From the NCBI GenBank assembly GCA_030631665.1, contig DAOVKU010000001.1, positions 1 to 49,841 of the forward strand: a stretch of DNA of 49,841 nucleotides, in the 5' to 3' direction. The DNA is from Candidatus Omnitrophota bacterium (lineage in GTDB: Bacteria; Omnitrophota; Gorgyraeia; DAOVKU01). Each line of letters begins with the position of its first letter. The first letter of the stretch is position 1. Both the position numbers and the translations under genes were made by a program. The notes below the pieces were generated by a model, which was not told the origin of the DNA, did not search any database, and saw only the letters and a list, made by a program, of their open reading frames with translations. Shown one piece after another: positions 4,436 through 45,629 of the stretch.

Positions 4436-5789
<1,354 letters not shown>

Positions 5790-5902: not shown

Positions 5903-6853
5903 TTATTCATTAGTTGATTCTTCTAATTTCTGTATGGCTAGCTTAGTCCAGTAGTCCTCGGGGTTTCCAAGGCGGGCACGCTCTGCCCAGTGCTTAAGAG
6001 CAGCTTTCCTTCTACCTAATTCTTCGCAAATAAGCGCCAGATTAGTATGAGCACATAAGTAATTAGGATCAACTTCCAAAGCTTTTTGAAATTCCTCAAT
6101 AGCTTTTTCTGTCTTATTTAAATATCTGTAATAAATAACTCCTAAGTCATTATAAACTGTGGCATAATACGGGTCATGGGAGATGGCTTTCTTGTAATAT
6201 TTAATGGCCTCTTTGTATTTTTTATCTACTTGATACCGATAACCTTTCTGCCGTAATTGCACAGCTTGCTTGGAAGGCTGATAAGCCGCTAAAGAAACAG
6301 GTAATACGGAAACCGGAAGCAGTTTTTCTTCCGCAATCTCAACTATAGTAATATCTTCTTTCTGCGGTAAAGACAGAATGGCTTGCGGCTTGAGAAGAAA
6401 TTGTTTTTTACTGACTTTTTTCTTGAGCTTTTTCTTTTTTAATTTAACCGCCCCTGACTTAGCCAGTGTTAAAAGATAAATATCACCATCACGTGAAAAT
6501 TCATAACCAACAGGCTCTGTCAGCTCAATTATCCAGAAATCAACTCCGTAGTAATCTTTATCTCCGGCGGAACTTTTTACAACTTTGATTTGTTCAATGG
6601 CTCCACTATGTACAGAAATATTTTCTTCTATATCGGTGAAACTATCTCCGATAATATCTATTATTATCTGGGGTGGCTGAGGTATATCGTAGGCAATCAA
6701 TTGAGGTTCTCCTTTTGTTTTAAATATTATCTCAATCGTATCTGCCTTTTTCTCAACACTGATGTCATTTATTTTATTCTGCAGCGCTTCAGCAGCGCTT
6801 ACTACAACTGCCAAAAACAGCAGGCAACTCAAAACAATAAAAACCTTTTTCAT
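5903..6853 (-). CDS. secreted AMIN-domain / TPR-repeat protein
   Basis: 316 aa. Has a signal peptide (LFLAVVVSAAEA) and an AMIN-like N-terminal beta domain (PQIIIDIIGD). A K-rich linker follows, then C-terminal TPR repeats (YYKKAISHDPYYATVYNDLGVIYY..., ALEVDPNY). Confidence 0.65.
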   Translation of the reverse strand: MKKVFIVLSCLLFLAVVVSAAEALQNKINDISVEKKADTIEIIFKTKGEPQLIAYDIPQPPQIIIDIIGDSFTDIEENISVHSGAIEQIKVVKSSAGDKDYYGVDFWIIELTEPVGYEFSRDGDIYLLTLAKSGAVKLKKKKLKKKVSKKQFLLKPQAILSLPQKEDITIVEIAEEKLLPVSVLPVSLAAYQPSKQAVQLRQKGYRYQVDKKYKEAIKYYKKAISHDPYYATVYNDLGVIYYRYLNKTEKAIEEFQKALEVDPNYLCAHTNLALICEELGRRKAALKHWAERARLGNPEDYWTKLAIQKLEESTNE

Positions 6854-6868
6854 CGCTCACTCCCTTTT

Positions 6869-6925
6869 TATACAGAGGACAGATTTTTTTCTTTTCTGAT
6901 TTCTGTCTTCTGGCTTCTGTTTTTC
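6869..6925 (+). repeat. CAGA/TCTG-unit palindromic repeat family 2, copy 2
   Basis: Sequence is tatacagaggacagatttttttcttttctgatttctgtcttctggcttctgtttttc. It lies between the HMGL-synthase stop and the AMIN/TPR gene start. Confidence 0.8.
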
Positions 6926-8168: not shown

Positions 8169-8391
8169 TTTTTTGCTCCTTCAATGAGTATATAATTTAC
8201 GGAAACGTAAATTGTGTGATCGAATTAACCCCGCCCTTTTGGCAAAAAATAAAATTATTTATCCTTTTTATATGCTTTGGGATAAAAGAATGCGCCTATA
8301 TTTATACGTTTTACCCCAGCCAAAAGAGCGAGGTAAGCTCAGCCATCAAACTTACAAATATTTCACTTCGTAAGTCTGGAATTCATTCATT

Positions 8392-9987: not shown

Positions 9988-10062
9988 TATACAGAAGTCA
10001 GAAAACAGAAATCAGAAAACAGAAAAGAAAAAAAATCTGTCATCTGTCATTTGTCATCTGTT
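9988..10062 (-). repeat. CAGA/TCTG-unit palindromic repeat family 2, copy 3 (inverted)
   Basis: Sequence is tatacagaagtcagaaaacagaaatcagaaaacagaaaagaaaaaaaatctgtcatctgtcatttgtcatctg. It is the reverse complement of the copy 1/2 layout and lies between the aminotransferase stop and the serA start. Confidence 0.8.
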
Positions 10063-10065
10063 TAA

Positions 10066-11202: not shown

Positions 11203-11219
11203 TTATTTTTCCTCCTTCG

Positions 11220-11268
11220 ATGACCCCGAAGCGTTGGGGGAATTGAATCCCGCTCTTTTGGCAAAAAA
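11220..11268 (+). repeat. mosaic module family 5, copy 2
   Basis: Sequence is atgaccccgaagcgttgggggaattgaatcccgctcttttggcaaaaaa. It abuts the SD of the aminotransferase gene. Its GAATTRAAYCC-plus-CCGCYCTTTTGG parts recur at 8221-8249, 11334-11362 (inverted), 16011-16032 and 43171-43195. Confidence 0.75.
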
Positions 11269-11446
11269 CGAGGTTAATTAATCTCTACAAGTGCCATAAC
11301 ATATAAAGCTGTGTATAGATCTATCATTACTCCCTACCCAAAAGGGCGGGGTCAAATTTCCCGAATGAGGTGTTTCTTCGAAGAATCTCTTCGGGATCCC
11401 GAAGTAATACTATTGCGGGCTACTACATTCGGGACAACCAATAAAC

Positions 11447-11534
11447 TTACCTTTCCCCTGAAATCTGAAAGATTTCGGGGACTTAATCCCTGAAATTCTT
11501 CGAATTTCTAGGGGCACTTCGTTCTGTAAGTCTA
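11447..11534 (+). repeat. ~88-nt multi-hairpin repeat family 3, copy X
   Basis: Sequence is cttacctttcccctgaaatctgaaagatttcggggacttaatccctgaaattcttcgaatttctaggggcacttcgttctgtaagtc. It lies just 3' of lon. Confidence 0.8.
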
Positions 11535-15959: not shown

Positions 15960-16044
15960 TTAACGAAACTCCAATTTATGCGACCGCCAGGAAGCATATA
16001 TTATATGGTTGAATTTAATCCGCCTAAGGCAGACTTATTTAAAA

Positions 16045-16528: not shown

Positions 16529-16537
16529 TAGTTACAA

Positions 16538-16640
16538 CTTCAGACTTCAGGCAACAGAAGTCAGAAAACAGACGACAGACAATAAATAGAAAAAGATACT
16601 TATTCTGTATTCTGTATTCTGTTATCTGTCCTCTGACTTA
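16538..16640 (-). repeat. CAGA/TCTG-unit palindromic repeat family 2, copy 4 (long)
   Basis: Left arm is cagaagtcagaaaacagacgacagac, the loop is A-rich, and the right arm is tctgtattctgtattctgttatctgtcctctgac. It lies between the trxA stop and the tRNA promoter. Confidence 0.7.
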
Positions 16641-17996: not shown

Positions 17997-18057
17997 CTAT
18001 ATCCCTTGTTTAAGTAATCGGGAATTCTTTACGATAATTTTCGATTAAACTTTGCAT

Positions 18058-18131
18058 AATCGGGGGACACAATACCTATTTTTTTCTCTTTGGGTGGCCC
18101 CCGCTTTCTTCTTTTTAAGATTTATCTTATT
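18058..18131 (+). repeat. GGGGACACAATAC repeat family 4, segment S1
   Basis: Sequence is aatcgggggacacaatacctatttttttctctttgggtggcccccgctttcttctttttaagatttatcttatt. It is about 75-80% identical to S2 by eye and overlaps the last 3 codons and stop of the 63-aa ORF. Confidence 0.75.
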
Positions 18132-18668: not shown

Positions 18669-19322
18669 CTATTGATTAATAGCGTTTTTCAACTGAACCA
18701 TCTCTGTTTGCTCCATTAATTTACGGTAAACAAAAGCATAAGCCACACCTGTTGTGGGGATAGTGGCAAACAAACCGATAAATAAACAGAATATTCCAAG
18801 TAAATTTATAATTCCAAGTATTAGGCTAAAACCAAGCAATTCCCATTTTGCGCCCTGTGTAATTGAAGCACTTGCCTTCAAGGCCTCTACGGGCCCCATT
18901 CCCTTATCAATTATAAAATAAGGGTAAAACTGAAATTTTATATTCCATATTATGCCCGGAACAATAAATAAAATAAACCCTCCTAAAACAATCAGCATAT
19001 AAAGAATTGAACTAAACAGGTATTTAAAAAACAGGCGATGACAGGAAAAAAGTTCGACAAACCCGGGCTTTTTATTATCGCAAAACCCCAGAACAATCTT
19101 GATAAAGCCCATGCCTATTATTAATTGTAAAATCCCAAAAACAACATAAATAATAACGGCCGCTAGCGGCATTTTTTTCTCTACCATATCACTGATAATA
19201 TCCGGCAAAAAATTAGCTAAAATTATGGTTATCAAAATGCCGATAAAAAGACCGAGATTATCCTTCATGGTCTTCCAGCCAAAAAGTATGGCTTGTCCAT
19301 CCGAAAAAGTTTTTATTGCCAT
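18669..19322 (-). CDS. integral membrane protein, unknown function (DUF975-like topology, unverified)
   Basis: 217 aa with 4-5 predicted TM helices. SD AAGGAG lies 8 nt upstream. I recognise no catalytic motif. Confidence 0.6.
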   Translation of the reverse strand: MAIKTFSDGQAILFGWKTMKDNLGLFIGILITIILANFLPDIISDMVEKKMPLAAVIIYVVFGILQLIIGMGFIKIVLGFCDNKKPGFVELFSCHRLFFKYLFSSILYMLIVLGGFILFIVPGIIWNIKFQFYPYFIIDKGMGPVEALKASASITQGAKWELLGFSLILGIINLLGIFCLFIGLFATIPTTGVAYAFVYRKLMEQTEMVQLKNAINQ

Positions 19323-19398: not shown

Positions 19399-19575
19399 TA
19401 GGGGGACACAATACCTATTTCTTTTTCTTCCTGCGCCCGGTTCTCTTCTTCTTAAGATTTATCTTATTAAATTAGTATTGTGTCCCCTGATTTTGTCCCT
19501 GATTTAATTTGATTTAATTAGTATTGTGTCCCCTGATTTACCGATTTACTAATTAGTATTGTGTCCCCTGATTTA
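19397..19575 (+). repeat. GGGGACACAATAC repeat family 4: segment S2 plus three inverted copies (MITE-like array)
   Basis: S2 (19397-19470) is aatagggggacacaatacctatttctttttcttcctgcgcccggttctcttcttcttaagatttatcttatt. It is followed by attagtattgtgtcccctgattt at 19471-19493, 19517-19539 and 19552-19574, plus a partial copy at 19494-19506. Confidence 0.8.
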
Positions 19576-21503: not shown

Positions 21504-21508
21504 ATTTT

Positions 21509-21575
21509 AATCCAAAAGGATACCTCTGAGGGCGCAAGTAGACCTTCCTAATTCCTTTAAAGGAGGGGTCTTAAG
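21509..21575 (+). repeat. hairpin repeat family 1, copy B (long form), abutting the pcm start
   Basis: Sequence is aatccaaaaggatacctctgagggcgcaagtagaccttcctaattcctttaaaggaggggtcttaag. It has a ~20-nt insert (cctctgagggcgcaagt) between GGATA and GACC. It begins 6 nt from the pcm ATG. Confidence 0.75.
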
Positions 21576-21643
21576 GAAGGGCCTAATTGGTTTAATTCAA
21601 AGCGCACATTAAGAATTTAACTATAGTTTTTTGTAGAAACCAA

Positions 21644-23518: not shown

Positions 23519-24577
23519 TCACCACCTTTTTCCAACACCAATAAAAACAGCGGATTCTCGCTTTTTCTTAAAAAGGTTTAAGAATGCTTCGCCACTGCCT
23601 TTTAATATTTTACGCGATAATTTTAAATTCACACCAATGTCTTTGTTGTCTATATCGTTTTTAAGTTTAAATGATATGGAATCTCTTTTTGTCAATCTGG
23701 CCTCTGCGCCAAAGCTCATTGAATAAACTTTCCTACCTCTATATTTTACCTCAAATGTCAAGCCCTTGTTCCTCTTAATTTTCCAAGCGCCAAAAAGAAT
23801 AATGGTCTTTTTAATAGGTTTTACCTTTTTAGACAATCCAAGGCCTATGGTATATTTTATATATTTGTCTTTAAATATACCAAAACTGCTTCTGAAATTA
23901 AAGACAGAATTGGTATTTTTATCCACAGGGATAGACCTTCCTAATTCCCTTGAAGGAGGGGTCTTATCCAATACATATGAAATCCTGGCTTTTTCCTCTA
24001 TGTCCCAATGTCCCTTAAAAATAAGGGTGTGGATTTTTTTTAATTTTTTAATAAGCTGAGCTTTTTCATACCGGTATATAATCTGCTGCTTCTTATCTAC
24101 ATCCCATTGCCCGCTAAAAATCAAGATATCATATCTGGAACGTTCTCTTTTCGCTTTAAAAGTAAGCCGGTTAAGCTTATCAGCCTGCCAGGCGCCTGCG
24201 AGTTTAAGAATATACGTTGACTTCTCACTTGTCCCGGTCTTGGTGGTAAGAGAAAATAAAAGAGAATTTTTATTTACATCTATTATATTGCCCTTTAATG
24301 CCAACTTATCACTAGTTACCCGCTTCTTCCATTTATCGAGACTAAATATTAAATCGTGATTTTTAGAAAGAGACCATTTGCCTTTAAATTTAACCTGGCG
24401 AGGAATGTTTTTGTCTTTTTGGGCAGGAGCTTTTATGTGATAAATTAAGGAATTGTTTTTGCCGATTTTAAACTTTCCGTCATAAACTTTTCTAAAACGC
24501 CTGAGGCCTGTTTTTTTTCCTGTCCTTCCGGAAATTAGTCTGTTGTGGGGATCTACTTCGTATTTAATTTTTGCCAT
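23519..24577 (-). CDS. lysine-rich beta-hairpin repeat protein, unknown function
   Basis: 352 aa, very basic, no signal peptide. It has about 9 repeats of the pattern h-x-h-x-G-x-W-x-h-x(3)-N-x-L-x-F (for example VKFKGKWSLSKNHDLIFSL, LIFSGQWDVDKKQQIIYRY). Its stop lies 3 nt before the channel gene start. It contains an in-frame copy of the hairpin repeat at 23921-23969. Confidence 0.6.
   Translation of the reverse strand: MAKIKYEVDPHNRLISGRTGKKTGLRRFRKVYDGKFKIGKNNSLIYHIKAPAQKDKNIPRQVKFKGKWSLSKNHDLIFSLDKWKKRVTSDKLALKGNIIDVNKNSLLFSLTTKTGTSEKSTYILKLAGAWQADKLNRLTFKAKRERSRYDILIFSGQWDVDKKQQIIYRYEKAQLIKKLKKIHTLIFKGHWDIEEKARISYVLDKTPPSRELGRSIPVDKNTNSVFNFRSSFGIFKDKYIKYTIGLGLSKKVKPIKKTIILFGAWKIKRNKGLTFEVKYRGRKVYSMSFGAEARLTKRDSISFKLKNDIDNKDIGVNLKLSRKILKGSGEAFLNLFKKKRESAVFIGVGKRW
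23921..23969 (+). repeat. hairpin repeat family 1, copy C, inside the 352-aa CDS
   Basis: Sequence is atccacagggatagaccttcctaattcccttgaaggaggggtcttatcc. On the minus strand it is translated in frame as LDKTPPSRELGRSIPVD. Confidence 0.85.
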
Positions 24578-27146: not shown

Positions 27147-28445
27147 TCACAGTTCAATCTCACGCCATGGGGTCCAATCCAGAGAAACTTTACTGAGATA
27201 GGTCCGACTGCTCATTAGAATTTTTTCTGGATTTCCTAAAACTTCAAGTGGTACATGAAACACGAGGTGTTTTGCCTGCCGCTTAATTTTTATAATCTTA
27301 TTGGGCAATCTGCGATTTTGGTCATAAATTCTATGCTCAATTGCCCCGAACCGAATATGGAGTTTAGGCATTTTGGCAAAAGGACAAAGGTTGCTGTATC
27401 CAAAAGCATAAATAGAAGCGCCCACTGTTTTTCCCAATGGCCGAGATAATTCAATAGAAATCACAAGACAATTATTTTCAAGGCTGACATAATTTTTTTC
27501 AAAACCGACAAATAAGGCACGCTCCCCATTGGTTAACTGCCTGGGGACAGGAATGATGGATGTGTCACGATCCGGGAATAAAGGTACAGAAGCAATATTT
27601 TGTTCTAAATTGATAGCCGGAAAATGGCCAAATAATTCATTAGTGCGTATAAAGGAAAGTAAATATTTGGCACTGTATTCATACTGTGACTTATACATTT
27701 CAAGAGCATTCTGTTTACGTGTTATATCTTCGGAGCTTAAACTATAATCCTGCCACGAGATTACATTCTTAAACAGTGCCGGTGGCTCCAATGGTTCATC
27801 CGGATGCAATCCCTTAGGGAAAGGCCAGTGTTTGCAATGAACCGGATAAGGATAAAGCTGGGGATTCATTTCTTTTTCTAAATCCCAGAGTGCGATGCGC
27901 GTAAAAAGATAGAGTGCGCGATGGTCAGGATTATGGTCTCCCGCATGTGAAAGAAAAACTTTGGTGGGTTTAAATTGTTGCAGTATGCTTTTTAAATCCC
28001 GCAGTATCTCCTCTCCTTTATATGGCGCCCCCGGGCGAAGAGCGCTGGCATAAGGAACCGCATTTACCCTGGTAAGCATGCTCATAGCCGGCGACGTATC
28101 ATTCCAGTGAAGACACCAAATAGCCAAAGTCTTGAAATCAGGATAGCCCAAAAATACCAAATCCTCCGCTGAAACTCCTAATTCTTCAGTAGCCCTATAG
28201 GCCTCGTCGTGGCGAACCATCCCCATGCTTCTAGCCGCCGCAGGCTCCAGCACAGGATGCTTTCGATAAATCAAAAACGACCATTGGTTATTATCGCCGT
28301 AGCTAAAATAAACAATCCGCAAAGGAATTCTCATCGCAACGGCCTTTTGGATAATTCCGCCACAGCCTAAAACTTCATCATCTGGGTGAGGCGCCAAAAT
28401 TAAAATGCGGTCATTGGAATTAAGTAATACGCTGGTGCTCGTCAT
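27147..28445 (-). CDS. PIG-L/LmbE-family N-acetylglucosaminyl deacetylase with ~200-aa C-terminal beta-rich extension
   Basis: 432 aa. Has the N-terminal ILAPHPDDEVLGCGG motif and a later HxDH (GDHNPDHRA). I recognise no family for the C-terminal half. Confidence 0.75.
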   Translation of the reverse strand: MTSTSVLLNSNDRILILAPHPDDEVLGCGGIIQKAVAMRIPLRIVYFSYGDNNQWSFLIYRKHPVLEPAAARSMGMVRHDEAYRATEELGVSAEDLVFLGYPDFKTLAIWCLHWNDTSPAMSMLTRVNAVPYASALRPGAPYKGEEILRDLKSILQQFKPTKVFLSHAGDHNPDHRALYLFTRIALWDLEKEMNPQLYPYPVHCKHWPFPKGLHPDEPLEPPALFKNVISWQDYSLSSEDITRKQNALEMYKSQYEYSAKYLLSFIRTNELFGHFPAINLEQNIASVPLFPDRDTSIIPVPRQLTNGERALFVGFEKNYVSLENNCLVISIELSRPLGKTVGASIYAFGYSNLCPFAKMPKLHIRFGAIEHRIYDQNRRLPNKIIKIKRQAKHLVFHVPLEVLGNPEKILMSSRTYLSKVSLDWTPWREIEL

Positions 28446-29148
28446 AACTTCCTACCAAAAATATAACATGTAAAATCTCTGTATAAACGGAAGCGCAAAA
28501 AAGTACTTTTTATCTTAAACAACAACTTAAAACCTGCCTTCGTAAAAAATGTCTTTGCCTCTTCAGAAATTGTAACACAATGCACCCCGCACACCTTTTC
28601 TTCTTTTAAAAAATTCAAATATTTCTCTATCAATCGACTTCCAACGCTAAAACCTCTAAAATTTTTATCTATATTAATATGAAATATAGCTGGATATTCT
28701 CTGGATAAACTGGGAGTAAAAAATTCACCTTTCAAAAAACTGCATATGCCATGCAGCAAAAACATCCAGGTGTTTTTTTAAGAAAAACTCCTTTCCTAAT
28801 AGCTTTAATAAATAATAAGGGGGCGATTTTCAATTTAAAAACTCTATCCATCGCCCTTTCATTTTTTGCCCCCACAACATAACCAACTACTTTCTCAGAG
28901 CAAACAGCAACAAAACAAGAACCAAGTTCGTAATCGGTGAAATACAATGTAAGGGCATCGGCTAAAATCTCATCGTCATCAAAAAAATCAGTCCTGGGTT
29001 TTCCTAAAAAAGCCGTATCACAGCTTATTTTCCTTAACTCTTCTCTATCTCTGCTCTCAAATTTTCTTATAACAACATTGTTTTTGTCCACCGCTTTTCT
29101 TTTTATTAATTTCCCACTATCTCTTTTAACTTTAATACTTTCATCCAC
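28442..29148 (-). pseudogene. GNAT-family N-acetyltransferase split by a frameshift in an A7 run
   Basis: ORF 28732-29148 encodes the N-terminal half (IRKFESRDREEL..., VVGYVVG). ORF 28442-28765 encodes the acetyl-CoA-binding half (YPAIFHINIDKNFRGFSVGSRLIE). One extra A in the run at 28773-28779 would fuse them as ...FLKKNTWMFLLHG.... Confidence 0.65.
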
Positions 29149-29190
29149 GGGGATAGACCTTCCTAATTCCTTTAAAGGAAGGGTCTTATA
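29143..29190 (+). repeat. hairpin repeat family 1, copy D, filling the HD-GNAT intergenic gap
   Basis: Sequence is atccacggggatagaccttcctaattcctttaaaggaagggtcttata. It spans from the HD gene stop (29191) into the GNAT GTG start (29146-29148). Confidence 0.85.
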
Positions 29191-32409: not shown

Positions 32410-32581
32410 TTTTTACCTCCTTAAAATTAAGTTGAAATTTTTTCCCTGCATAAATCCTCAAACTGTCTCAAAAGATATAATTATGATAACATGTTAAAAA
32501 GACTAGTTCAAGAAAAAATATGATCAGAAAAGTAAGTTTCTATCCATTTCTAAAAAATGCAGCGGTTTTTATTTCACACAC

Positions 32582-32610
32582 TTGACAAGGGCATTATTTA
32601 TGGCATAATA
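32582..32610 (+). promoter_or_regulatory. sigma70-like promoter for mscS
   Basis: TTGACA at 32582-32587, a 16-17-nt spacer, then CATAAT/ATAATA at 32604-32610 with an upstream TGG (extended -10-like). It predicts a 5' UTR of about 175 nt that contains repeat copy E. Confidence 0.55.
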
Positions 32611-32704
32611 AAAAGCAGTAATTGAATTTATACTAAACTTCTAAAAAATTCCTAAAACTACACTAAAAACGCTTAAAGAAATCTTCAAATTAAGAGAGGT
32701 GCTT

Positions 32705-32785
32705 ATCCACGGGGATAGACCTAACTCGAAGAGTAGTCTTCGACTAAGGGCACAGGCAGACCTTTATAATTCCTTTGAAGGAGGG
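32705..32785 (+). repeat. hairpin repeat family 1, copy E (long form) in the mscS 5' UTR
   Basis: Sequence is atccacggggatagacct-[aactcgaagagtagtcttcgactaagggcacaggc]-agacctttataattcctttgaaggaggg. The 3' arm provides the mscS SD. The insert carries the tcgaagaNtagtcttcga hairpin also seen at 5879-5900. Confidence 0.8.
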
Positions 32786-32792
32786 ATTTAAT

Positions 32793-33626
32793 ATGATGCA
32801 ATTTTTAGACAAAGAAATTTTGGATAAACTGCATATGTACTTTGTTACCTATGGCATGAATTTCGTTGGGGCTATTATCATTTTTATTATAGGCCGCTGG
32901 CTTGCCAGTATTATTTCCAAGCTAGTTGAAAAAGTCATGCACAGAACCCGCGTAGATAAAACGCTGATATCCTTTGCTAAAAACATTATTTATGCTGCCC
33001 TTCTCATTCTTGTGCTTATAGCAACACTGAGCAAATTAGGCATACAGACTGCTTCCCTCATAGCCGTTATTGGTGCTGGCACCCTGGCTGTGGGCTTGGC
33101 GCTTCAGGGCTCACTGGCCAATTTTGCTGCCGGAGTAATATTAATTATCTTCAGGCCATTCCGAATCGGCGACCTTATTGAAGTCGAAGGCACCAAGGGA
33201 ATTGTAGAAGAACTTCAAATATTTAATACTATATTATATGCGGTGGACAAAAGGCGCCTCGTAATTCCCAATTCCAAAGTTACATCCGATAAGATTATAA
33301 ACCTAAGTTCTATCAATAAAGATAAAAGCTGGGTTGATATGGTTTTTGGTATTTCATATAATGATGATATTGAAAAGGCAAGGGAAATACTGCAAAAAGT
33401 CGCATTGAGCGACCCGCGTGTCTTAAAGGACCCGCCACCCTTTGTGGGCGTCCTGGAGTTGGCAGACAGCAGTGTTAATGTTGTGTGCAGGCCATGGGTA
33501 AAACCCAAAGATTATCAGGCTGTCCGTTTTGAGATATTAGAGAAGGGTAAAATAGAATTAGAAAAAAATGGCCTAACTATTGCCTACCCCCAGAGAGACG
33601 TCCATATATACGAAGAGAAAAAGTAA
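32793..33626 (+). CDS. mscS: small-conductance mechanosensitive channel
   Basis: Has three TM helices and the MscS signature (GSLANFAAGVILIIFRPFRIGDLIEVEG). The ORF track starts at the TTG at 32775. The ATG at 32793 lies 7 nt after GGAGGG, so I prefer it. Confidence 0.88.
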   Translation: MMQFLDKEILDKLHMYFVTYGMNFVGAIIIFIIGRWLASIISKLVEKVMHRTRVDKTLISFAKNIIYAALLILVLIATLSKLGIQTASLIAVIGAGTLAVGLALQGSLANFAAGVILIIFRPFRIGDLIEVEGTKGIVEELQIFNTILYAVDKRRLVIPNSKVTSDKIINLSSINKDKSWVDMVFGISYNDDIEKAREILQKVALSDPRVLKDPPPFVGVLELADSSVNVVCRPWVKPKDYQAVRFEILEKGKIELEKNGLTIAYPQRDVHIYEEKK

Positions 33627-33674
33627 CCGAAAACCGGCAGGCTCTTTGTATCTACATCTAAAATTGCTCTTCTT

Positions 33675-33763
33675 ATCCACAGGGATAGACCTTACTAATT
33701 CCCCTTAAGGAAGGGTCTAATCCACAGGGATAGACCTTACTAATTCCCCGAATGAAGGGTCTA
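33675..33763 (+). repeat. hairpin repeat family 1, copies F1 and F2 (head-to-tail dimer, 45-nt period)
   Basis: Sequence is atccacagggatagaccttactaattccccttaaggaagggtcta followed directly by atccacagggatagaccttactaattccccgaatgaagggtcta. It lies between convergent mscS and the SH3-like gene. The last cta is that gene's stop codon. Confidence 0.85.
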
Positions 33764-34465
33764 ATTTAGCAACGCTTCCAGTTGTTTAATTTCCCCCTCT
33801 GCTTTTTTCCACAAAAGCTGGCAATATTTTAACAAGGAAAGGACATCGTGATTAACAATATTATCGAAATATGTTGCTTGCGGGATTAAAGACTTATACT
33901 TATCTACATAGGTTTGCAGGTCGGGATAATTAGAAGTGTACAAGAGTTCAATGGTCCCATCGGTTATGCAAGGCTTGGCTTCCGGCTCGAGCTCTCTAAT
34001 ACACCAAACATTACCGGCTGTTATAAAACAAGTTGTAATACTCACTATCTTTTTCTGAATATCAGAAGTATCCATTAAGTTTGCCACAGTTAAATCGCTG
34101 CTTGTTTTTAAATTCGAAAGCATATTTTCATATTCTTCATAGCTAACTCCGGACTCAACTGTTGATATCAACGATTTTGCCAACTGGATAAAATCCGCCA
34201 ATTCCGCAGGTAACTCTTTTTGAGAAACAGCTATGTCCACAGCATTTTTACGCATCCAGCCGACTAGAGACACTTTAACCCAATCTCCCCGCTTTTCCAA
34301 AATCTCAAAACTTGTACCTTTATATGCCAGGGCAAGCACTTTCTCGCCAGCCACTGTATTCAGAATGGGCTTTTTTTTGTTCGCTATGCCAACATCAGCC
34401 AAAGCCTGATCAACAAATAGCGCTAAAAAAGCAATAGCCATAATTAAAATACTTATTCTCTTCAT
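33761..34465 (-). CDS. secreted SH3-like domain protein, unknown function
   Basis: 234 aa. Has a signal peptide (AFLALFVDQALA) and an SH3b-like stretch (GTSFEILEKRGDWVKVSLVGWM). It is the last gene of the Bat-type cluster. SD is AGAGGTGA. Confidence 0.55.
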   Translation of the reverse strand: MKRISILIMAIAFLALFVDQALADVGIANKKKPILNTVAGEKVLALAYKGTSFEILEKRGDWVKVSLVGWMRKNAVDIAVSQKELPAELADFIQLAKSLISTVESGVSYEEYENMLSNLKTSSDLTVANLMDTSDIQKKIVSITTCFITAGNVWCIRELEPEAKPCITDGTIELLYTSNYPDLQTYVDKYKSLIPQATYFDNIVNHDVLSLLKYCQLLWKKAEGEIKQLEALLN

Positions 34466-35290: not shown

Positions 35291-37146
35291 AATCTGTGCC
35301 TCTCCAGAAAACGTAAAATTTCTTCCATGTTTTTGAAGGTTACTTCCATCTGGCTCCTGCCAAATTCTGAAGGCGCATATCTTGCCATATCGCAATCTTT
35401 AAAAATATCTTTTAACTTACTAAGGGTATCTTCATCTATCCCTCTGGGTTTAAGGATTTTATCAACGACATCTATGGTTATCCCTCCTGCAGGTAGATGA
35501 AGCTTATCTCCTAAATACTCCTGTAGGGTTTTAAATATGGCATCATAAAATTCCAGCCTTTTCTTTTTATTTAGAAACTGCTGCGCTTTCTTAATGCCCT
35601 CTCTTGCCTTTTTGGAAGCATAGAGGCGGCGGGCATATCGAGTATCCGTTTTGAGCCTTTCACTTCTTTTATATATAGTCAATACAGAAATAAGAAATAA
35701 AAAGGGGAGTAGTTGAAGTAATAAAAATCCTCTGTTTTTATAAAGATAAAGACCTTTTCTTTTTATTTTTCCCGGCAATTCTTTAATATAAACAATGTCC
35801 TTACCGAGTATTTCATCCGCCGGAAAACTTATGCGCTTCTCAAGACTTTCTACTATTTTGGCTTTTTCTTCCTTTTTCCGTTTTGTCACTTTTATTGGTA
35901 GTGGTCCTCGCGATATAGTCTGATATGTTCCTCTCATAGGATCGAAAAAAGTAAAATGAGTTCTGGGGATTTCTTTTACTTCTTCGGTTTTTGGTATCAA
36001 GATTTGTTCAAAGGTTTTTTTATTACCTTTAAATGTTACCTGTGGTTCGTATGTCTTAAAATTTTCATGCAAATCAGGCGCTGGGCACCTCATAACATCA
36101 AAGTTGCCTCTACCGGTTACAATCATTTTAAGTGTCATAGGATCTCCGACTTCTACGGTCTTGGGATCTATCAAAAGATTAAAATTGAAATTTCCAACCG
36201 CCCCGCTAAAATTTTCCGGCCGGCCTTCTTTTGGCAAAGGAAGTACCGTCACAAAAACTTCTTTAGATTTTAATTCCAGCGGATAAGTTTCGTATTTTCC
36301 GAAGAAATCATCAAAGGCATCTCCCCCAAAAAAATCATCAAAAATACTCGATTTTCTAGTGGCCCTTTGCTTCCTGATAATAAGATTACACCCCAGCTCC
36401 GACGGGCCCAAAGTAAGTTCGCCGGGCTTTATAGCAAAAATATGCGTTCTAAACTCCACCACATCGTATGGAATGCCGTTTAAACCTTGCGTATATTGCC
36501 TTGGTTTTTCAAATTCACCTACAGAAAATCCTTCGTGTGCAAATTTAGGATATTGAATCTCTTTCAATGAAAGCCTGTTTACATACAATTTTATAGTTAG
36601 CGGGACAACTTCATTTAAATATAATTTTTCCTTTTCAATTTCCACAACCACAAAAATTCTGTTTCCTAAATTCATCTTCATTTTGCCAGGTGCCACTTGT
36701 GGCTGCTTTTCTTCCGCAAGGGGCCCCCGCACCACTTCAACCGTTATTTTTCCTGAGGTATATGTTTTCCCTTTATAACTGACTGAAAAAGGTCCGAGAG
36801 GCAAAATTCCCGGCTTAAGCGGGGTAATCATATAATTATAAGTTATTGACCTTGTGGTTTTGCCGTTTACAATCGACATCATCGCTGAAGGACCGACATA
36901 ACGAACTCTAACATTCTTCATCTGAGGCAACTCCGGCTTGGGGGCATCCTGCGTATTATGAAAAATAAGGCTGAGCTTAATGCTTTCGCCAAAAGAGATT
37001 TTATTTTTATCGACCGCAGTCTCAAATATTATATCCGAAGCTGTACAAACCGAATTAAAAATCCAAAATTCAAATATCAAAATGATAATGAAAAAAATGA
37101 AATTTTTAAAAATTTTATTTTTTAATTTTTGCACTTTTATTACCAA
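35287..37146 (-). CDS. batD: BatD-like oxygen-tolerance protein
   Basis: 619 aa. It has a signal peptide, a large beta-rich periplasmic region, a TM helix near residue 480 and a C-terminal helical cytoplasmic domain. Its position follows BatC. The start is uncertain: TTG at 37146 or GTG at 37134. Confidence 0.7.
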   Translation of the reverse strand: MVIKVQKLKNKIFKNFIFFIIILIFEFWIFNSVCTASDIIFETAVDKNKISFGESIKLSLIFHNTQDAPKPELPQMKNVRVRYVGPSAMMSIVNGKTTRSITYNYMITPLKPGILPLGPFSVSYKGKTYTSGKITVEVVRGPLAEEKQPQVAPGKMKMNLGNRIFVVVEIEKEKLYLNEVVPLTIKLYVNRLSLKEIQYPKFAHEGFSVGEFEKPRQYTQGLNGIPYDVVEFRTHIFAIKPGELTLGPSELGCNLIIRKQRATRKSSIFDDFFGGDAFDDFFGKYETYPLELKSKEVFVTVLPLPKEGRPENFSGAVGNFNFNLLIDPKTVEVGDPMTLKMIVTGRGNFDVMRCPAPDLHENFKTYEPQVTFKGNKKTFEQILIPKTEEVKEIPRTHFTFFDPMRGTYQTISRGPLPIKVTKRKKEEKAKIVESLEKRISFPADEILGKDIVYIKELPGKIKRKGLYLYKNRGFLLLQLLPFLFLISVLTIYKRSERLKTDTRYARRLYASKKAREGIKKAQQFLNKKKRLEFYDAIFKTLQEYLGDKLHLPAGGITIDVVDKILKPRGIDEDTLSKLKDIFKDCDMARYAPSEFGRSQMEVTFKNMEEILRFLERHRL

Positions 37147-38027
37147 TCCCTTAATACCTTTGGATAATGAGCTTTCCTTTTTTTGGCTTCGATGTCCCCT
37201 GCCTCTTCTTCCTGCTGATAACTTTCTAACAACATCCTTGCTTCTTCTTCAGACATCTCTCCCAATTCTGCCGGTATCTCTTCGGCCTCTCCTTCTCTCC
37301 CAGGCTCCTCTTCTTTGCCTTGCGGAACTTGCCCGGGAGAAGGTTGTGGTTTTTCCTTTTCCTTCTGTTCCTGTTCTTTTTGTTTTTGCTCTTTTTCTTC
37401 TTGCTTCTGCTTTTCTTTTTCTTTTGGGTCCTCTTGCTGTTCTTTTTTTTGTTTTTCCTCTTCCTGTTTTTGTTTCTCTTTATCCTGTTTCTCTGATTGC
37501 TGTTGTTGTTGCTCTTTTTGTTGTTGTTGCTGCTGTTGTTGCTTTTCCATAAGTTCTTTTATTTTCTTTTCTACAAATTCATAATTAAACTTTGCATCTT
37601 CATCCTTTTCATCTAAATCTACGGCTCTTTTATAATAATTAAGCGCCTCTTTATATAAATTAATAGCCTCGGACAAATCCGTATTTTCCTTGGCTGATCC
37701 TTGCCTAACCCTGGAACTGCCTATATTGTAATTTGCCCTTGCTTCCAATTGAGAATCTTTTGTAATCAAAGACTTTGTAAGCAAATCTACGGCCTTCTGG
37801 TAATCTCCTTTTTTATATAGGGTTGTTCCTACATTAAAATTTACTATGTTGGAATCAGGTGATTCGACTTGTGCTTCATTGTACTTCCGGATAGCCTCAT
37901 CGTATTTTTCATCTTTATACAACCGGTTGCCTTCTTTTACATCTTTGGCAATTGAAGCCGCCAAACTTAAAGGTATTTCATAAAATAAAGCTGCTACAAA
38001 AATTATTATACACAAAATTCTTCTCAT
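37140..38027 (-). CDS. batC: BatC-like TPR protein with long Q/E/K low-complexity tail
   Basis: 295 aa. Has a signal peptide and TPR repeats (GNRLYKDEKYDEAIRKYNEA...). These are followed by QQQQQQQQKEQQQQQSEKQDKEKQKQEEEKQKK.... Confidence 0.7.
   Translation of the reverse strand: MRRILCIIIFVAALFYEIPLSLAASIAKDVKEGNRLYKDEKYDEAIRKYNEAQVESPDSNIVNFNVGTTLYKKGDYQKAVDLLTKSLITKDSQLEARANYNIGSSRVRQGSAKENTDLSEAINLYKEALNYYKRAVDLDEKDEDAKFNYEFVEKKIKELMEKQQQQQQQQKEQQQQQSEKQDKEKQKQEEEKQKKEQQEDPKEKEKQKQEEKEQKQKEQEQKEKEKPQPSPGQVPQGKEEEPGREGEAEEIPAELGEMSEEEARMLLESYQQEEEAGDIEAKKRKAHYPKVLRDW
37330..37550 (-). repeat. low-complexity coding repeats (CAA/CAG/GAA/AAA-rich) within batC
   Basis: The plus strand reads as runs of ttgttgttgctg and ctttttcttttg units. 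These encode poly-Q and EKQK repeats and also create spurious antisense ORFs. Confidence 0.8.
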
Positions 38028-43071: not shown

Positions 43072-43160
43072 ATGATTTACGAAACAAAGTGCCCTGAGAA
43101 ATTCGAAGAATTTCCAGGATTAAGTCCCCGAAATCTTATAGATTTCAGGGGAAACGTAAA
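43072..43160 (-). repeat. ~88-nt multi-hairpin repeat family 3, copy Y (inverted)
   Basis: Its reverse complement tttacgtttcccctgaaatctataagatttcggggacttaatcctggaaattcttcgaatttctcagggcactttgtttcgtaaatc matches copy X with about 10 mismatches. It lies in the moxR 5' region. Confidence 0.8.
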
Positions 43161-43213
43161 TTATATGTCGGAATTAAATCCGTCTTAGGCGGATATACTT
43201 CTTTCATTTTCTT

Positions 43214-44834: not shown

Positions 44835-44914
44835 ATCCATAGGGATACCCCTGAGGGCACAAGCACCCCAAGGGGGCACAGGTAGACCTTGCTATTCCTT
44901 AAAGCAAGGGTCTA
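44835..44914 (+). repeat. hairpin repeat family 1, copy G (long form), overlapping the kdsB 3' end
   Basis: Sequence is atccatagggatacccctgagggcacaagcaccccaagggggcacaggtagaccttgctattccttaaagcaagggtcta. Its 3' arm encodes the kdsB C-terminus LDPCFKE plus the stop. Confidence 0.8.
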
Positions 44915-45629
44915 ATTTTTCTTCTACTTTTTTAAAATCTTCCTCTGTATCAACGCCAATGGTATCGTAATCAATCTCAATAATTTTTATATTAATTGCA
45001 TTTTCCAGTGCCCTTAATTGCTCAAGTCCTTCTATTTTTTCAAGTGGGGTTTGGGCCATCTGAGAAAATTCAACTAGAAAATTCTTCCTATAGGCATAAA
45101 TACCGATATGTTTAAGATATCTGACTCCCGCCCTTTTTTGGTGATTATAAGGTATGAGTGCTCTTGAAAAATAAAGAGCGTTTGCGCTGTTATCAACTAC
45201 CACTTTAACTATATTTGGATCTTCGAGCTGTTCTCGCTTAGTGGTAGCAAAAGCTACGGAAACCATGCGTTGCTTGGGATTATCAATTAAAAAACGGACC
45301 ATTTTATTCAGAGTTTCCGATTTTATCAATGGTTCATCAGCTTGTATATTTAAAACAATTTCGCAATCTATCGCAGAGGCAACTTCAGCAACTCTATCAG
45401 TACCGCTTTTGTGTCTTGGGTGCGTCATTATAACCTGCGCACCAAAACTCTGAGCCTTTTCCTTTACCTCTCTATCGCAACAGGCAATTATGACTTTATT
45501 CAAGGCAGAAGCATTCTTTGCTCGCTGCCAGACATACCATAGAAGCGGCCTATTTGAAATTGGCTTTAATATTTTTTTTGCCAAACGCTTCGATTTTAAA
45601 CGCGCCGGTATAATACCAACTGCTTTCAT
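44892..45629 (-). CDS. kdsB: 3-deoxy-manno-octulosonate cytidylyltransferase (CMP-Kdo synthetase)
   Basis: 245 aa. Has IIPARLKSKRLAKK at the N-terminus, plus GTDR and QADEPL motifs. The last ~8 codons and the stop lie inside repeat copy G. Confidence 0.9.
   Translation of the reverse strand: MKAVGIIPARLKSKRLAKKILKPISNRPLLWYVWQRAKNASALNKVIIACCDREVKEKAQSFGAQVIMTHPRHKSGTDRVAEVASAIDCEIVLNIQADEPLIKSETLNKMVRFLIDNPKQRMVSVAFATTKREQLEDPNIVKVVVDNSANALYFSRALIPYNHQKRAGVRYLKHIGIYAYRKNFLVEFSQMAQTPLEKIEGLEQLRALENAINIKIIEIDYDTIGVDTEEDFKKVEEKLDPCFKE

Follow-up and report, generated by a model that had tools for sequence, protein, structure and literature searches.

The 49,841-nt stretch of contig DAOVKU010000001.1 (Candidatus Omnitrophota bacterium), called here the window, carries on its minus strand a gene for a 352-residue protein into which one copy of a small dispersed hairpin repeat has been inserted without loss of the reading frame (Table 1). 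The minus strand from 23971 to 23918 reads TTG GAT AAG ACC CCT CCT TCA AGG GAA TTA GGA AGG TCT ATC CCT GTG GAT AAA. After re-deriving the reading, we found this segment to be in frame with the open reading frame (ORF) and free of stop codons, as a preliminary description of this DNA had claimed. The core of the repeat together with one TAA encodes residues 205-219, KTPPSRELGRSIPVD, and the peptide across the insertion is SRELGRSIPVDK. The comparisons with related genomes presented below support the view that an apparently undescribed, very small mobile hairpin repeat has entered, in frame, a predicted surface loop of a conserved protein.

Table 1. Host gene, copies of the repeat and the filled and empty sites compared (window positions unless a locus is named; CDS, coding sequence).
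Feature	Position	Strand	Filled site	Empty site	Remarks
Host gene	23519..24577	-			352-residue all-beta repeat protein, conserved uncharacterised Omnitrophota family
42-nt core of the inserted element, GACCCCTCCTTCAAGGGAATTAGGAAGGTCTATCCCTGTGGA	23922..23963	-	TTGGA-TAA-[42 nt]-TAA-AAAT	L030: TTAGA-TAA-AAAT	no counterpart in L001, L002, L030
Left copy of the duplicated TAA target	23964..23966	-			within codons GAT AAG; from comparison with empty L030
Right copy of the duplicated TAA	23919..23921	-			from comparison with empty L030
Short form, intergenic, TAA-[42-nt core]-TGA	29141..29188	-	ATA-TAA-[42 nt]-TGA-AAGT	L001: ATA-TAA-GAGT	HD-GNAT spacer, between HD-domain gene (stop 29191) and GNAT gene; L001 site lacks the 45 nt; imperfect pair
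Short form, intergenic, diverged, TAA-[core]-TAA	18429..18476	-	TTTTTC-TAA-[42 nt]-TAA-ACGG	L001: TTTTTC-TAA-ACGG	gap exactly 45 nt
Two head-to-tail copies	33673..33764	-			45-nt spacing, one shared TTA
Long form, doubled 5' arm and extra CTTGCGCCCTCAGAGG module	21508..21586	-			TTA on both sides; ends 4 nt before ATG of PCMT-like gene
Long form, extra hairpin module	32703..32791	-			divergent region, adjoins mscS-like gene
Long form, two CYTGTGCCC...GGGG modules, compensated arms TTGCT/AGCAA	44833..44915	-			kdsB frame runs in
PilO-like CDS	L007, L029		CAGGA-TAA-[42 nt]-TAA-AA..	L027, L028: CAGGA-TAA-AACT
Upstream of PCMT gene	L001 12979-13023		CTAA-TTA-[42 nt]-TTA-AAATATG	L002: CTAA-TTA-AACTATG

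The 352-residue protein has 461 detected homologues, mostly of 336-337 residues. A Pfam search with the protein gave no family and a Foldseek search of the PDB with its model gave nothing significant. The three closest orthologues (337 residues each, with alignment identities of 88, 85 and 76%) are without precisely the 15 residues in question. Across the segment, 17 residues are present in 114 of the 116 aligned members and 19 in one, and 32 occur in the window protein alone; the segment is missing from all 115 other members and measures 15 residues rather than the 16 initially proposed. The DNA alignments with the empty orthologues, including that on the syntenic contig L001 (GCA_974946265.1, approximately 90% nucleotide identity in this gene), contain a clean 45-nt gap. 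The 48-nt core of the preliminary description does not hold as the net insertion, which comprises the 42-nt core and one extra TAA; the larger figure was obtained because the core had been counted with both copies of TAA.

The AlphaFold2 model of the 352-residue protein (116 sequences; mean per-residue confidence, pLDDT, 77; predicted template-modelling score, pTM, 0.76) is an all-beta repeat structure. The insertion lies in its sole long stretch with pLDDT<50 (residues 207-222), between the strands 199-203 and 225-228, in agreement with the loop postulated earlier. The notion of an unusually long loop was correct for this protein, where it spans about 21 residues (estimated before as about 22), but the proper comparison is the orthologous loop of about 6 residues and not the 10-15 residues given for the other linkers. 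The dN/dS ratio is 0.15 when the window gene is compared with its empty L001 orthologue and 0.18 for two empty orthologues compared with each other; the host gene therefore shows no sign of decay. Purifying selection on it continues, and the extra 15-residue loop is probably neutral.

Filled and empty versions of five sites, taken from the syntenic L001 and other fetched loci, were compared (Table 1). A single TWA (TAA or TTA) at the empty site corresponds to two copies at the filled one, exactly in four of the five pairs and imperfectly in the HD-GNAT spacer, and a TTA target gives TTA on both flanks. The duplication registers GAT, ATA and GGATAA were ruled out, since the 18-kb and L001/L002 pairs fit TWA alone. 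The left and right flanking trinucleotides co-vary when all copies are considered (Fisher p = 0.011), with p rising to 0.11 once the likely orthologous copies are removed. Judged from these alignments, the unit gained per insertion is the 42-nt core plus the 3-nt duplication, i.e., 45 nt.

The element in the 352-residue gene is not solitary. A covariance model of the hairpin (R1), for which the eight window copies themselves served as training sequences, detected these eight copies, all on the minus strand, with E values from 2e-18 to 6e-12, the next best hit having E = 0.8. A pattern of the 30-nt core with up to three mismatches matched three times in the window and not once in 100 shuffles, and a repeat search of the window listed the copies in families D2, D3 and D5. 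Seven of the eight copies are intergenic, the remaining one being that at 23919-23966; the tandem pair consists of 33673-33720 and 33721-33764. At the site orthologous to 21508-21586, L001 has a short form and L002 no element. With the insertion, its exact boundaries, the 3-nt duplication and the multi-copy family at hand, we consider it very probable that a non-autonomous mobile repeat of very small size has left one copy in the 352-residue gene.

The consensus core of the element is GACCCTTCCTT-nAAA-GGAATT-AGGAAGGTC-TATCC-nnnn-GGA. Its first 30 nt form an imperfect hairpin of 10 bp, in which GACC(C)TTCCT pairs with AGGAAGGTC across an 11-nt loop, leaving one bulged C, and a 12-nt tail, TATCCnnnnGGA, follows 3' of the hairpin. 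The left end of the element is GACCCTTCC and the tail is its right end: the left arm begins at core nt 1, the right arm stops at nt 30 and the right extremity (..TGGA) is not complementary to the left end. Across 26 aligned copies, 83.5% of the cells are paired, and compensatory changes occur at four pairs, e.g., TTGCT/AGCAA at 44880-44912, AGTCC/GGACT in L006 and AGGCC/GGCCT in L020. The folding energy of the short forms relative to shuffled sequence is ordinary for their base composition (z from -0.2 to -1.3), and Rfam searched with both gathering and permissive thresholds gave no family. The long forms measure approximately 80-90 nt with both TWA counted; they contain, between GGTCTA and TCCnnnnGGA, one or two additional CYTGYGCCC...GGG hairpin modules. 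Insertion targets are TAA or TTA, often within GGA-TAA; this motif resembles the element's own right end, which accounts for the head-to-tail arrays, where one TWA is common to each junction.

The second coding case is a 267-residue PilO-like protein (Pfam PF28028, Amuc_1100) encoded in L007/L016, with a relative in L029. The inserts read DK(A/T)LPL(K/E)ELGRSIPVDK, in the same frame as in the 352-residue protein and again at GGA-TAA, and seven homologues are without the segment. In the model of the PilO-like protein, the insert (residues 183-197) is placed in a predicted loop, with pLDDT<50 at 187-203. The filled P0122 and the empty P0124 are sisters in the gene tree (91% identity), and the filled P0121 is 75% identical; hence, two separate insertions occurred at one site, or precise excision of the element took place at least twice. 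Between L007 and L029, the element in this gene is 93% identical and the flanking codons 81%. Altogether, the orthologues devoid of the 15 residues, the loop model and the second gene bear out the earlier idea of a dispersed palindromic element inserted in frame into a loop.

Not every insertion can be read through. With TAA flanks, two of the six phase/orientation combinations are stop-free (sense KTLPLKELGRSIPVD, antisense LSTGIDLPNSFKGRVL), and with TTA flanks only one of six, LDPSFKGIRKVYPCGL. Since the 45 nt gained are divisible by three, a copy that enters a coding TAA whose phase is xxT AAx is translated without interruption as K-T-(L/P)-P-(L/S)-(K/R)-E-L-G-R-S-I-P-V-D. Both internal coding insertions use the TAA sense frame and the tail of kdsB (44892-44915) uses the TTA frame. 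The kdsB gene (44892..45629, minus strand) enters the left half of an element copy and ends ...EEKLDPCFKE, its stop being a TAG in the element loop; homology to solved KdsB structures ends at about residue 236-239 of 245, and the last seven residues of KdsB appear to be element-derived. At other places the element or its target coincides with the end of a gene: the TAG stop of the gene 33761..34465 (minus strand) is made of TTA and G at the element's left end, a TAA stop lies within a GGATAA target in L020 (approximately 779-786), and in L017 (1945-1960) the end of an AcsC-like gene, IQRDRPS followed by a stop, is encoded on the element's antisense strand.

Beyond the window, another 18 Omnitrophota-type contigs yielded 25 copies. 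The scans that delivered them, of genomes and of metagenomes, needed an exact 19-mer and returned 13 + 11 loci, six of which were chance matches. The titles, where given, assign the contigs with the element to Omnitrophota/Omnitrophica, an "uncultured Planctomycetia" metagenome-assembled genome (MAG) and Ratteibacteria. In every contig with more than one copy the copies are co-oriented, and their orientation relative to the neighboring genes and to GC skew varies among contigs with no consistent rule. At the protein level, a 30-residue query over the insertion matched a single, unrelated 62-residue tandem-repeat protein (P0130) in a representative set of 1.84 billion sequences, and three concatenated element-encoded peptides had no candidate with enough shared words in a database of 5.8 billion proteins.

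We propose that a copy of the element would insert at TAA or TTA, duplicate TWA and add 45 nt. In the 352-residue gene the insertion took place at GAT AAA, codons for Asp-Lys in a loop that links two beta-strands; the gene remained intact and, according to the model, gained a disordered 15-residue surface loop. The element would presumably be mobilised in trans, by a transposase whose gene lies at another place in the genome. Because of the TWA duplication, a staggered-cut DDE enzyme of the IS5 / PIF-Harbinger type is favored over its main rival, a Y1/HUH enzyme.

Several observations weigh against the view of a mobile repeat of this kind. One of the five filled/empty pairs is imperfect (the HD-GNAT spacer), and the 3-nt "duplication" could instead be the shared crossover core of a site-specific recombinase. 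There is no terminal inverted repeat at the right end, the right arm lying 12 nt inside, which is atypical for DDE-mobilised MITEs (miniature transposable elements with inverted repeats). No transposase gene was seen in the 49.8-kb window or beside the copies examined, including the space between the paired copies in L020 and the neighborhood of the L014 array, nor was a full-length parent element or parent insertion sequence (IS) detected in the sequence examined. The exact 19-mer search biases the set of copies to conserved members and so inflates the sequence conservation and the low stem variation. The translation of the loop is a prediction and its neutrality is presumed; moreover, the contig comes from a metagenome assembly and the insertion could be polymorphic in the population.

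The element might have been moved as single-stranded DNA by a hairpin-recognizing HUH/Y1 transposase of the RAYT (a tyrosine transposase associated with REPs, which are repetitive extragenic palindromes) or IS200/IS605 type, the TWA being the target or cleavage sequence. We regard this as unlikely, even though the size of the element and its imperfect hairpin with bulged bases are those of REPs, and intragenic REPs are documented, also in the PVC superphylum (PMC3733652). The single orientation per contig (all eight copies of the window, binomial p = 0.008, and likewise each locus with several copies) would suit such an enzyme, as would the G-rich sense strand of the window, which is the lagging-strand template if the usual leading-strand G-excess holds; however, the orientation relative to GC skew and genes varies among contigs. 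In the same vein, the preferred GGA-TAA targets mimic the 3' end of the element and head-to-tail arrays occur, but inverted dimers or REPINs were not seen in the multi-copy contigs and the GTAG/CGTC tag is present in none of the 26 copies (TTAG or TAAG stands instead). IS200/IS605 insertion makes no target duplication, yet empty sites have one TWA and filled sites two, with TTA targets giving TTA flanks; nor was any Y1 transposase seen in the window or near the copies examined. A functional cis element, i.e., an RNA hairpin that serves to stabilise mRNA, to direct its processing or to control its translation, or a DNA site for protein binding, through which the copy in the coding sequence regulates the 352-residue gene, seems quite improbable to us. 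It would explain the strong sequence conservation across genomes whose proteins are about 55-75% identical and the higher identity of the element than of the flanking codons in the PilO-like gene, although this conservation is inflated by the exact-match finding. Many copies stand directly after stop codons or just before starts, and the arms CCTTCCT and AGGAAGG resemble anti-Shine-Dalgarno (SD) and SD sequences; the orientation to genes is nevertheless mixed (sense in the window's clade, antisense in L006, L013, L014, L017 and L019), the short forms fold no better than shuffled sequence and Rfam has no match. Presence or absence of the element at conserved sites among close relatives also speaks against a required function.

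It is barely conceivable that the segment is ancestral and was deleted in the relatives, or that a metagenome mis-assembly placed a repeat in the gene. The window is a MAG contig and the protein cluster consists of two member sequences on one contig, but the segment is absent from 115 of the 116 family members, spanning 53-88% identity, and corresponds over its full length to the dispersed repeat, with TAA flanks that match. A chimeric join is not normally precise, in frame and flanked by a duplicated target, and L007/L016 and L029, from different samples, show the same architecture independently. The preliminary description had also offered the AGGAAGG-N9-GTG motif as an internal ribosome binding site and start, giving a separate C-terminal product (about 137 residues there, about 135 in our reading), with the start context of the GNAT gene at 29148 as a precedent. 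The motif is present, its GTG (23924-23922) is in frame and the 9-nt spacing is compatible with initiation; still, such a start is hardly credible. The GTG is not conserved among the members of the element family (CTGTGGA, TTTTGGA, CCGTAGA, CTATGGA, TGCTGGA), AGGAAGG is an arm paired in the hairpin, and the C-terminal fragment would split what the model shows as a continuous beta-repeat fold. The precedent itself proved an artefact, 29148 being a position where mechanical ORF extension took in the element copy 29141-29188: the L001 GNAT homologue aligns from residue 20 of the 29148 ORF, which places the start at a GTG at about 29091, 57 nt downstream. A mobile repeat inserted in frame thus remains our preferred explanation.

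Among the known systems, the Rickettsia palindromic elements (RPEs) are dispersed palindromic repeats that occupy intergenic sites and, in frame, unrelated genes, adding a conserved peptide and leaving the host gene intact (PMC10969869, PMC3733652). The Omnitrophota element likewise lies in frame within intact ORFs, and two unrelated genes carry the same peptide in predicted loops. RPEs, however, are roughly 100-150 bp long and alphaproteobacterial, which sets them apart in size and host from an element of 42 + 3 nt, and the 3-nt TWA duplication and head-to-tail arrays distinguish the latter further. The term "RPE-like coding insertion" used before holds by analogy but not by homology; the size differs and a sequence relationship is not expected. 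In-frame palindromic insertion as such is already known from Rickettsia and other bacteria; it is the present element family that appears undescribed.

REPs are small hairpin repeats located mostly just 3' of genes, sometimes intragenic or clustered, and known in the PVC superphylum (PMC3733652, PMC2817692). The 30-nt hairpin is within the 20-40 bp range of REP stem-loops and the element is mostly extragenic in the window, but it lacks the GTAG/CGTC tag, the position being TTAG, TAAG or TCAG with AG paired. It clusters head-to-tail and never as the inverted or alternating pairs of REPs and bacterial interspersed mosaic elements (BIMEs), and its TWA duplication is not a REP feature; no RAYT was found in the 49.8-kb window or the loci examined. 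Tourist-like MITEs of the PIF/Harbinger-IS5 (PHIS) group are non-autonomous, multi-copy and directed to AT-rich targets with a 3-bp TWA duplication, and PIF/Harbinger, which makes 5'-TWA-3' duplications, is related to bacterial IS5 (PMC4482050, PMC2213677). The Omnitrophota element shares with them the multi-copy state, the inverted-repeat arms and, deduced from filled and empty sites, the TWA duplication that marks DDE transposition of the PIF/Harbinger type. On the other hand, its 42-nt core is below the usual MITE size of 70-300 bp (PMC3733652), its right arm is subterminal by 12 nt and neither a parent IS nor a DDE transposase was found; PIF/Harbinger itself is eukaryotic, and the target of bacterial IS5 is ANT, not TWA (PMC4482050). 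The IS200/IS605-derived PATE inserts 3' of a specific target without duplicating it and has subterminal hairpins at both ends, whereas the element described here has its target on both sides and a single hairpin as the basic unit. Finally, insertion of Coxiella QMITEs and intragenic ERIC/BOX repeats into ORFs leads to in-frame fusions or altered C-termini (PMC5896051, PMC10969869), comparable with the kdsB tail and the stop codons supplied by element copies, although those are other families, much larger and with other target-site duplications. No paper tying Omnitrophota to REP or MITE elements was among the top full-text matches of the literature search.

Rickettsia and a few genomes rich in REPs offer the best-documented cases of selfish palindromic repeats spreading into genes in frame; here such a case is resolved to the boundaries in the uncultivated phylum Omnitrophota. 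The set of evidence is unusually complete, with exact empty sites, a 3-nt duplication and two independent host proteins carrying the same peptide, and the distribution of the element implies current or recent activity. In practice, screening the annotation of Omnitrophota MAGs for the element may reveal ORF extensions that are spurious, changed C-termini and indels. A bolder idea, which we put forward tentatively and with more doubt than conviction, is that no class of active transposable DNA characterised to date in bacteria is as small as the element: a 42-nt single hairpin, widespread in Omnitrophota, that makes TWA duplications, has a length divisible by three and one stop-free sense frame per target type and so can colonise coding loops, can hit one codon repeatedly or excise precisely, as in the PilO-like gene, and is moved by an enzyme that has at present no known link to substrates this minimal.

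Some further differences between the window and its relatives lie close to element copies. A segment of about 1.3 kb (32472-33760) with an mscS-like gene on the opposite strand (approximately 32799..33626) is flanked by the copies at 33673-33764 and 32703-32791; at the syntenic position of L001 (1128-1165) the segment is absent and a degenerate element remnant, TAATTAGTAAGGCCTACCC, is found alone. This difference may reflect an element-associated gain or loss of a gene. The HD-GNAT spacer is approximately 250 nt shorter in the window than in L001. The GNAT gene, one gene of 216 codons in L001, is represented in the window by two overlapping ORFs, 28732..29148 and 28442..28765 (minus strand), which align to residues 1-119 and 111-216, with homology failing after about residue 105; the split is a frameshift near 28765, which could reflect a pseudogene or a sequencing error. 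In three of the other contigs (L003, approximately 278-330; L010, approximately 6297-6345; L022, approximately 1633-1680), one and the same conserved sequence with a hairpin, CCCCGCAGAGTATCCCGA....TCGGGATGGTTTACGTTGC, comes after the element; Rfam gave no family for this sequence, and in L010 it is near a signal recognition particle (SRP) RNA at 5909-6159.

The window also contains other repeats. A second dispersed repeat, with CAGAAGTCAGAAAACAGAAATCAGAAAACAG-type units (families D4, D11 and D13; inverted pairs I2-I8), occurs in both orientations in intergenic spacers, at 4447-4511, 6874-6923, 9991-10063 and 16536-16594. A third family is represented by an inverted pair of 89 nt (11444-11532 and 43074-43162) whose members are 87% complementary and separated by 31.5 kb. 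The short repeat ...GGAATTAAATCCGCCTAAGGCG..., related to this pair, is intergenic at 1971-2025, 8201-8233, 11210-11250, 15990-16040 and 43150-43201. Three tandem-like copies of TTAATTAGTATTGTGTCCCCTGATTT precede the gene 18669..19322 (19458-19574), one inverted copy lies near 18055-18081, and the motif CCCCGCTTTCTTCTTTTTAAGATTTATCTTATT is common to 19458-19574 and 18055-18131. A long CT-rich low-complexity tract at 37343-37576 (family D1) within the gene 37140..38027, which codes for a TPR protein, corresponds to a Glu/Lys/Gln-rich segment on the minus strand.

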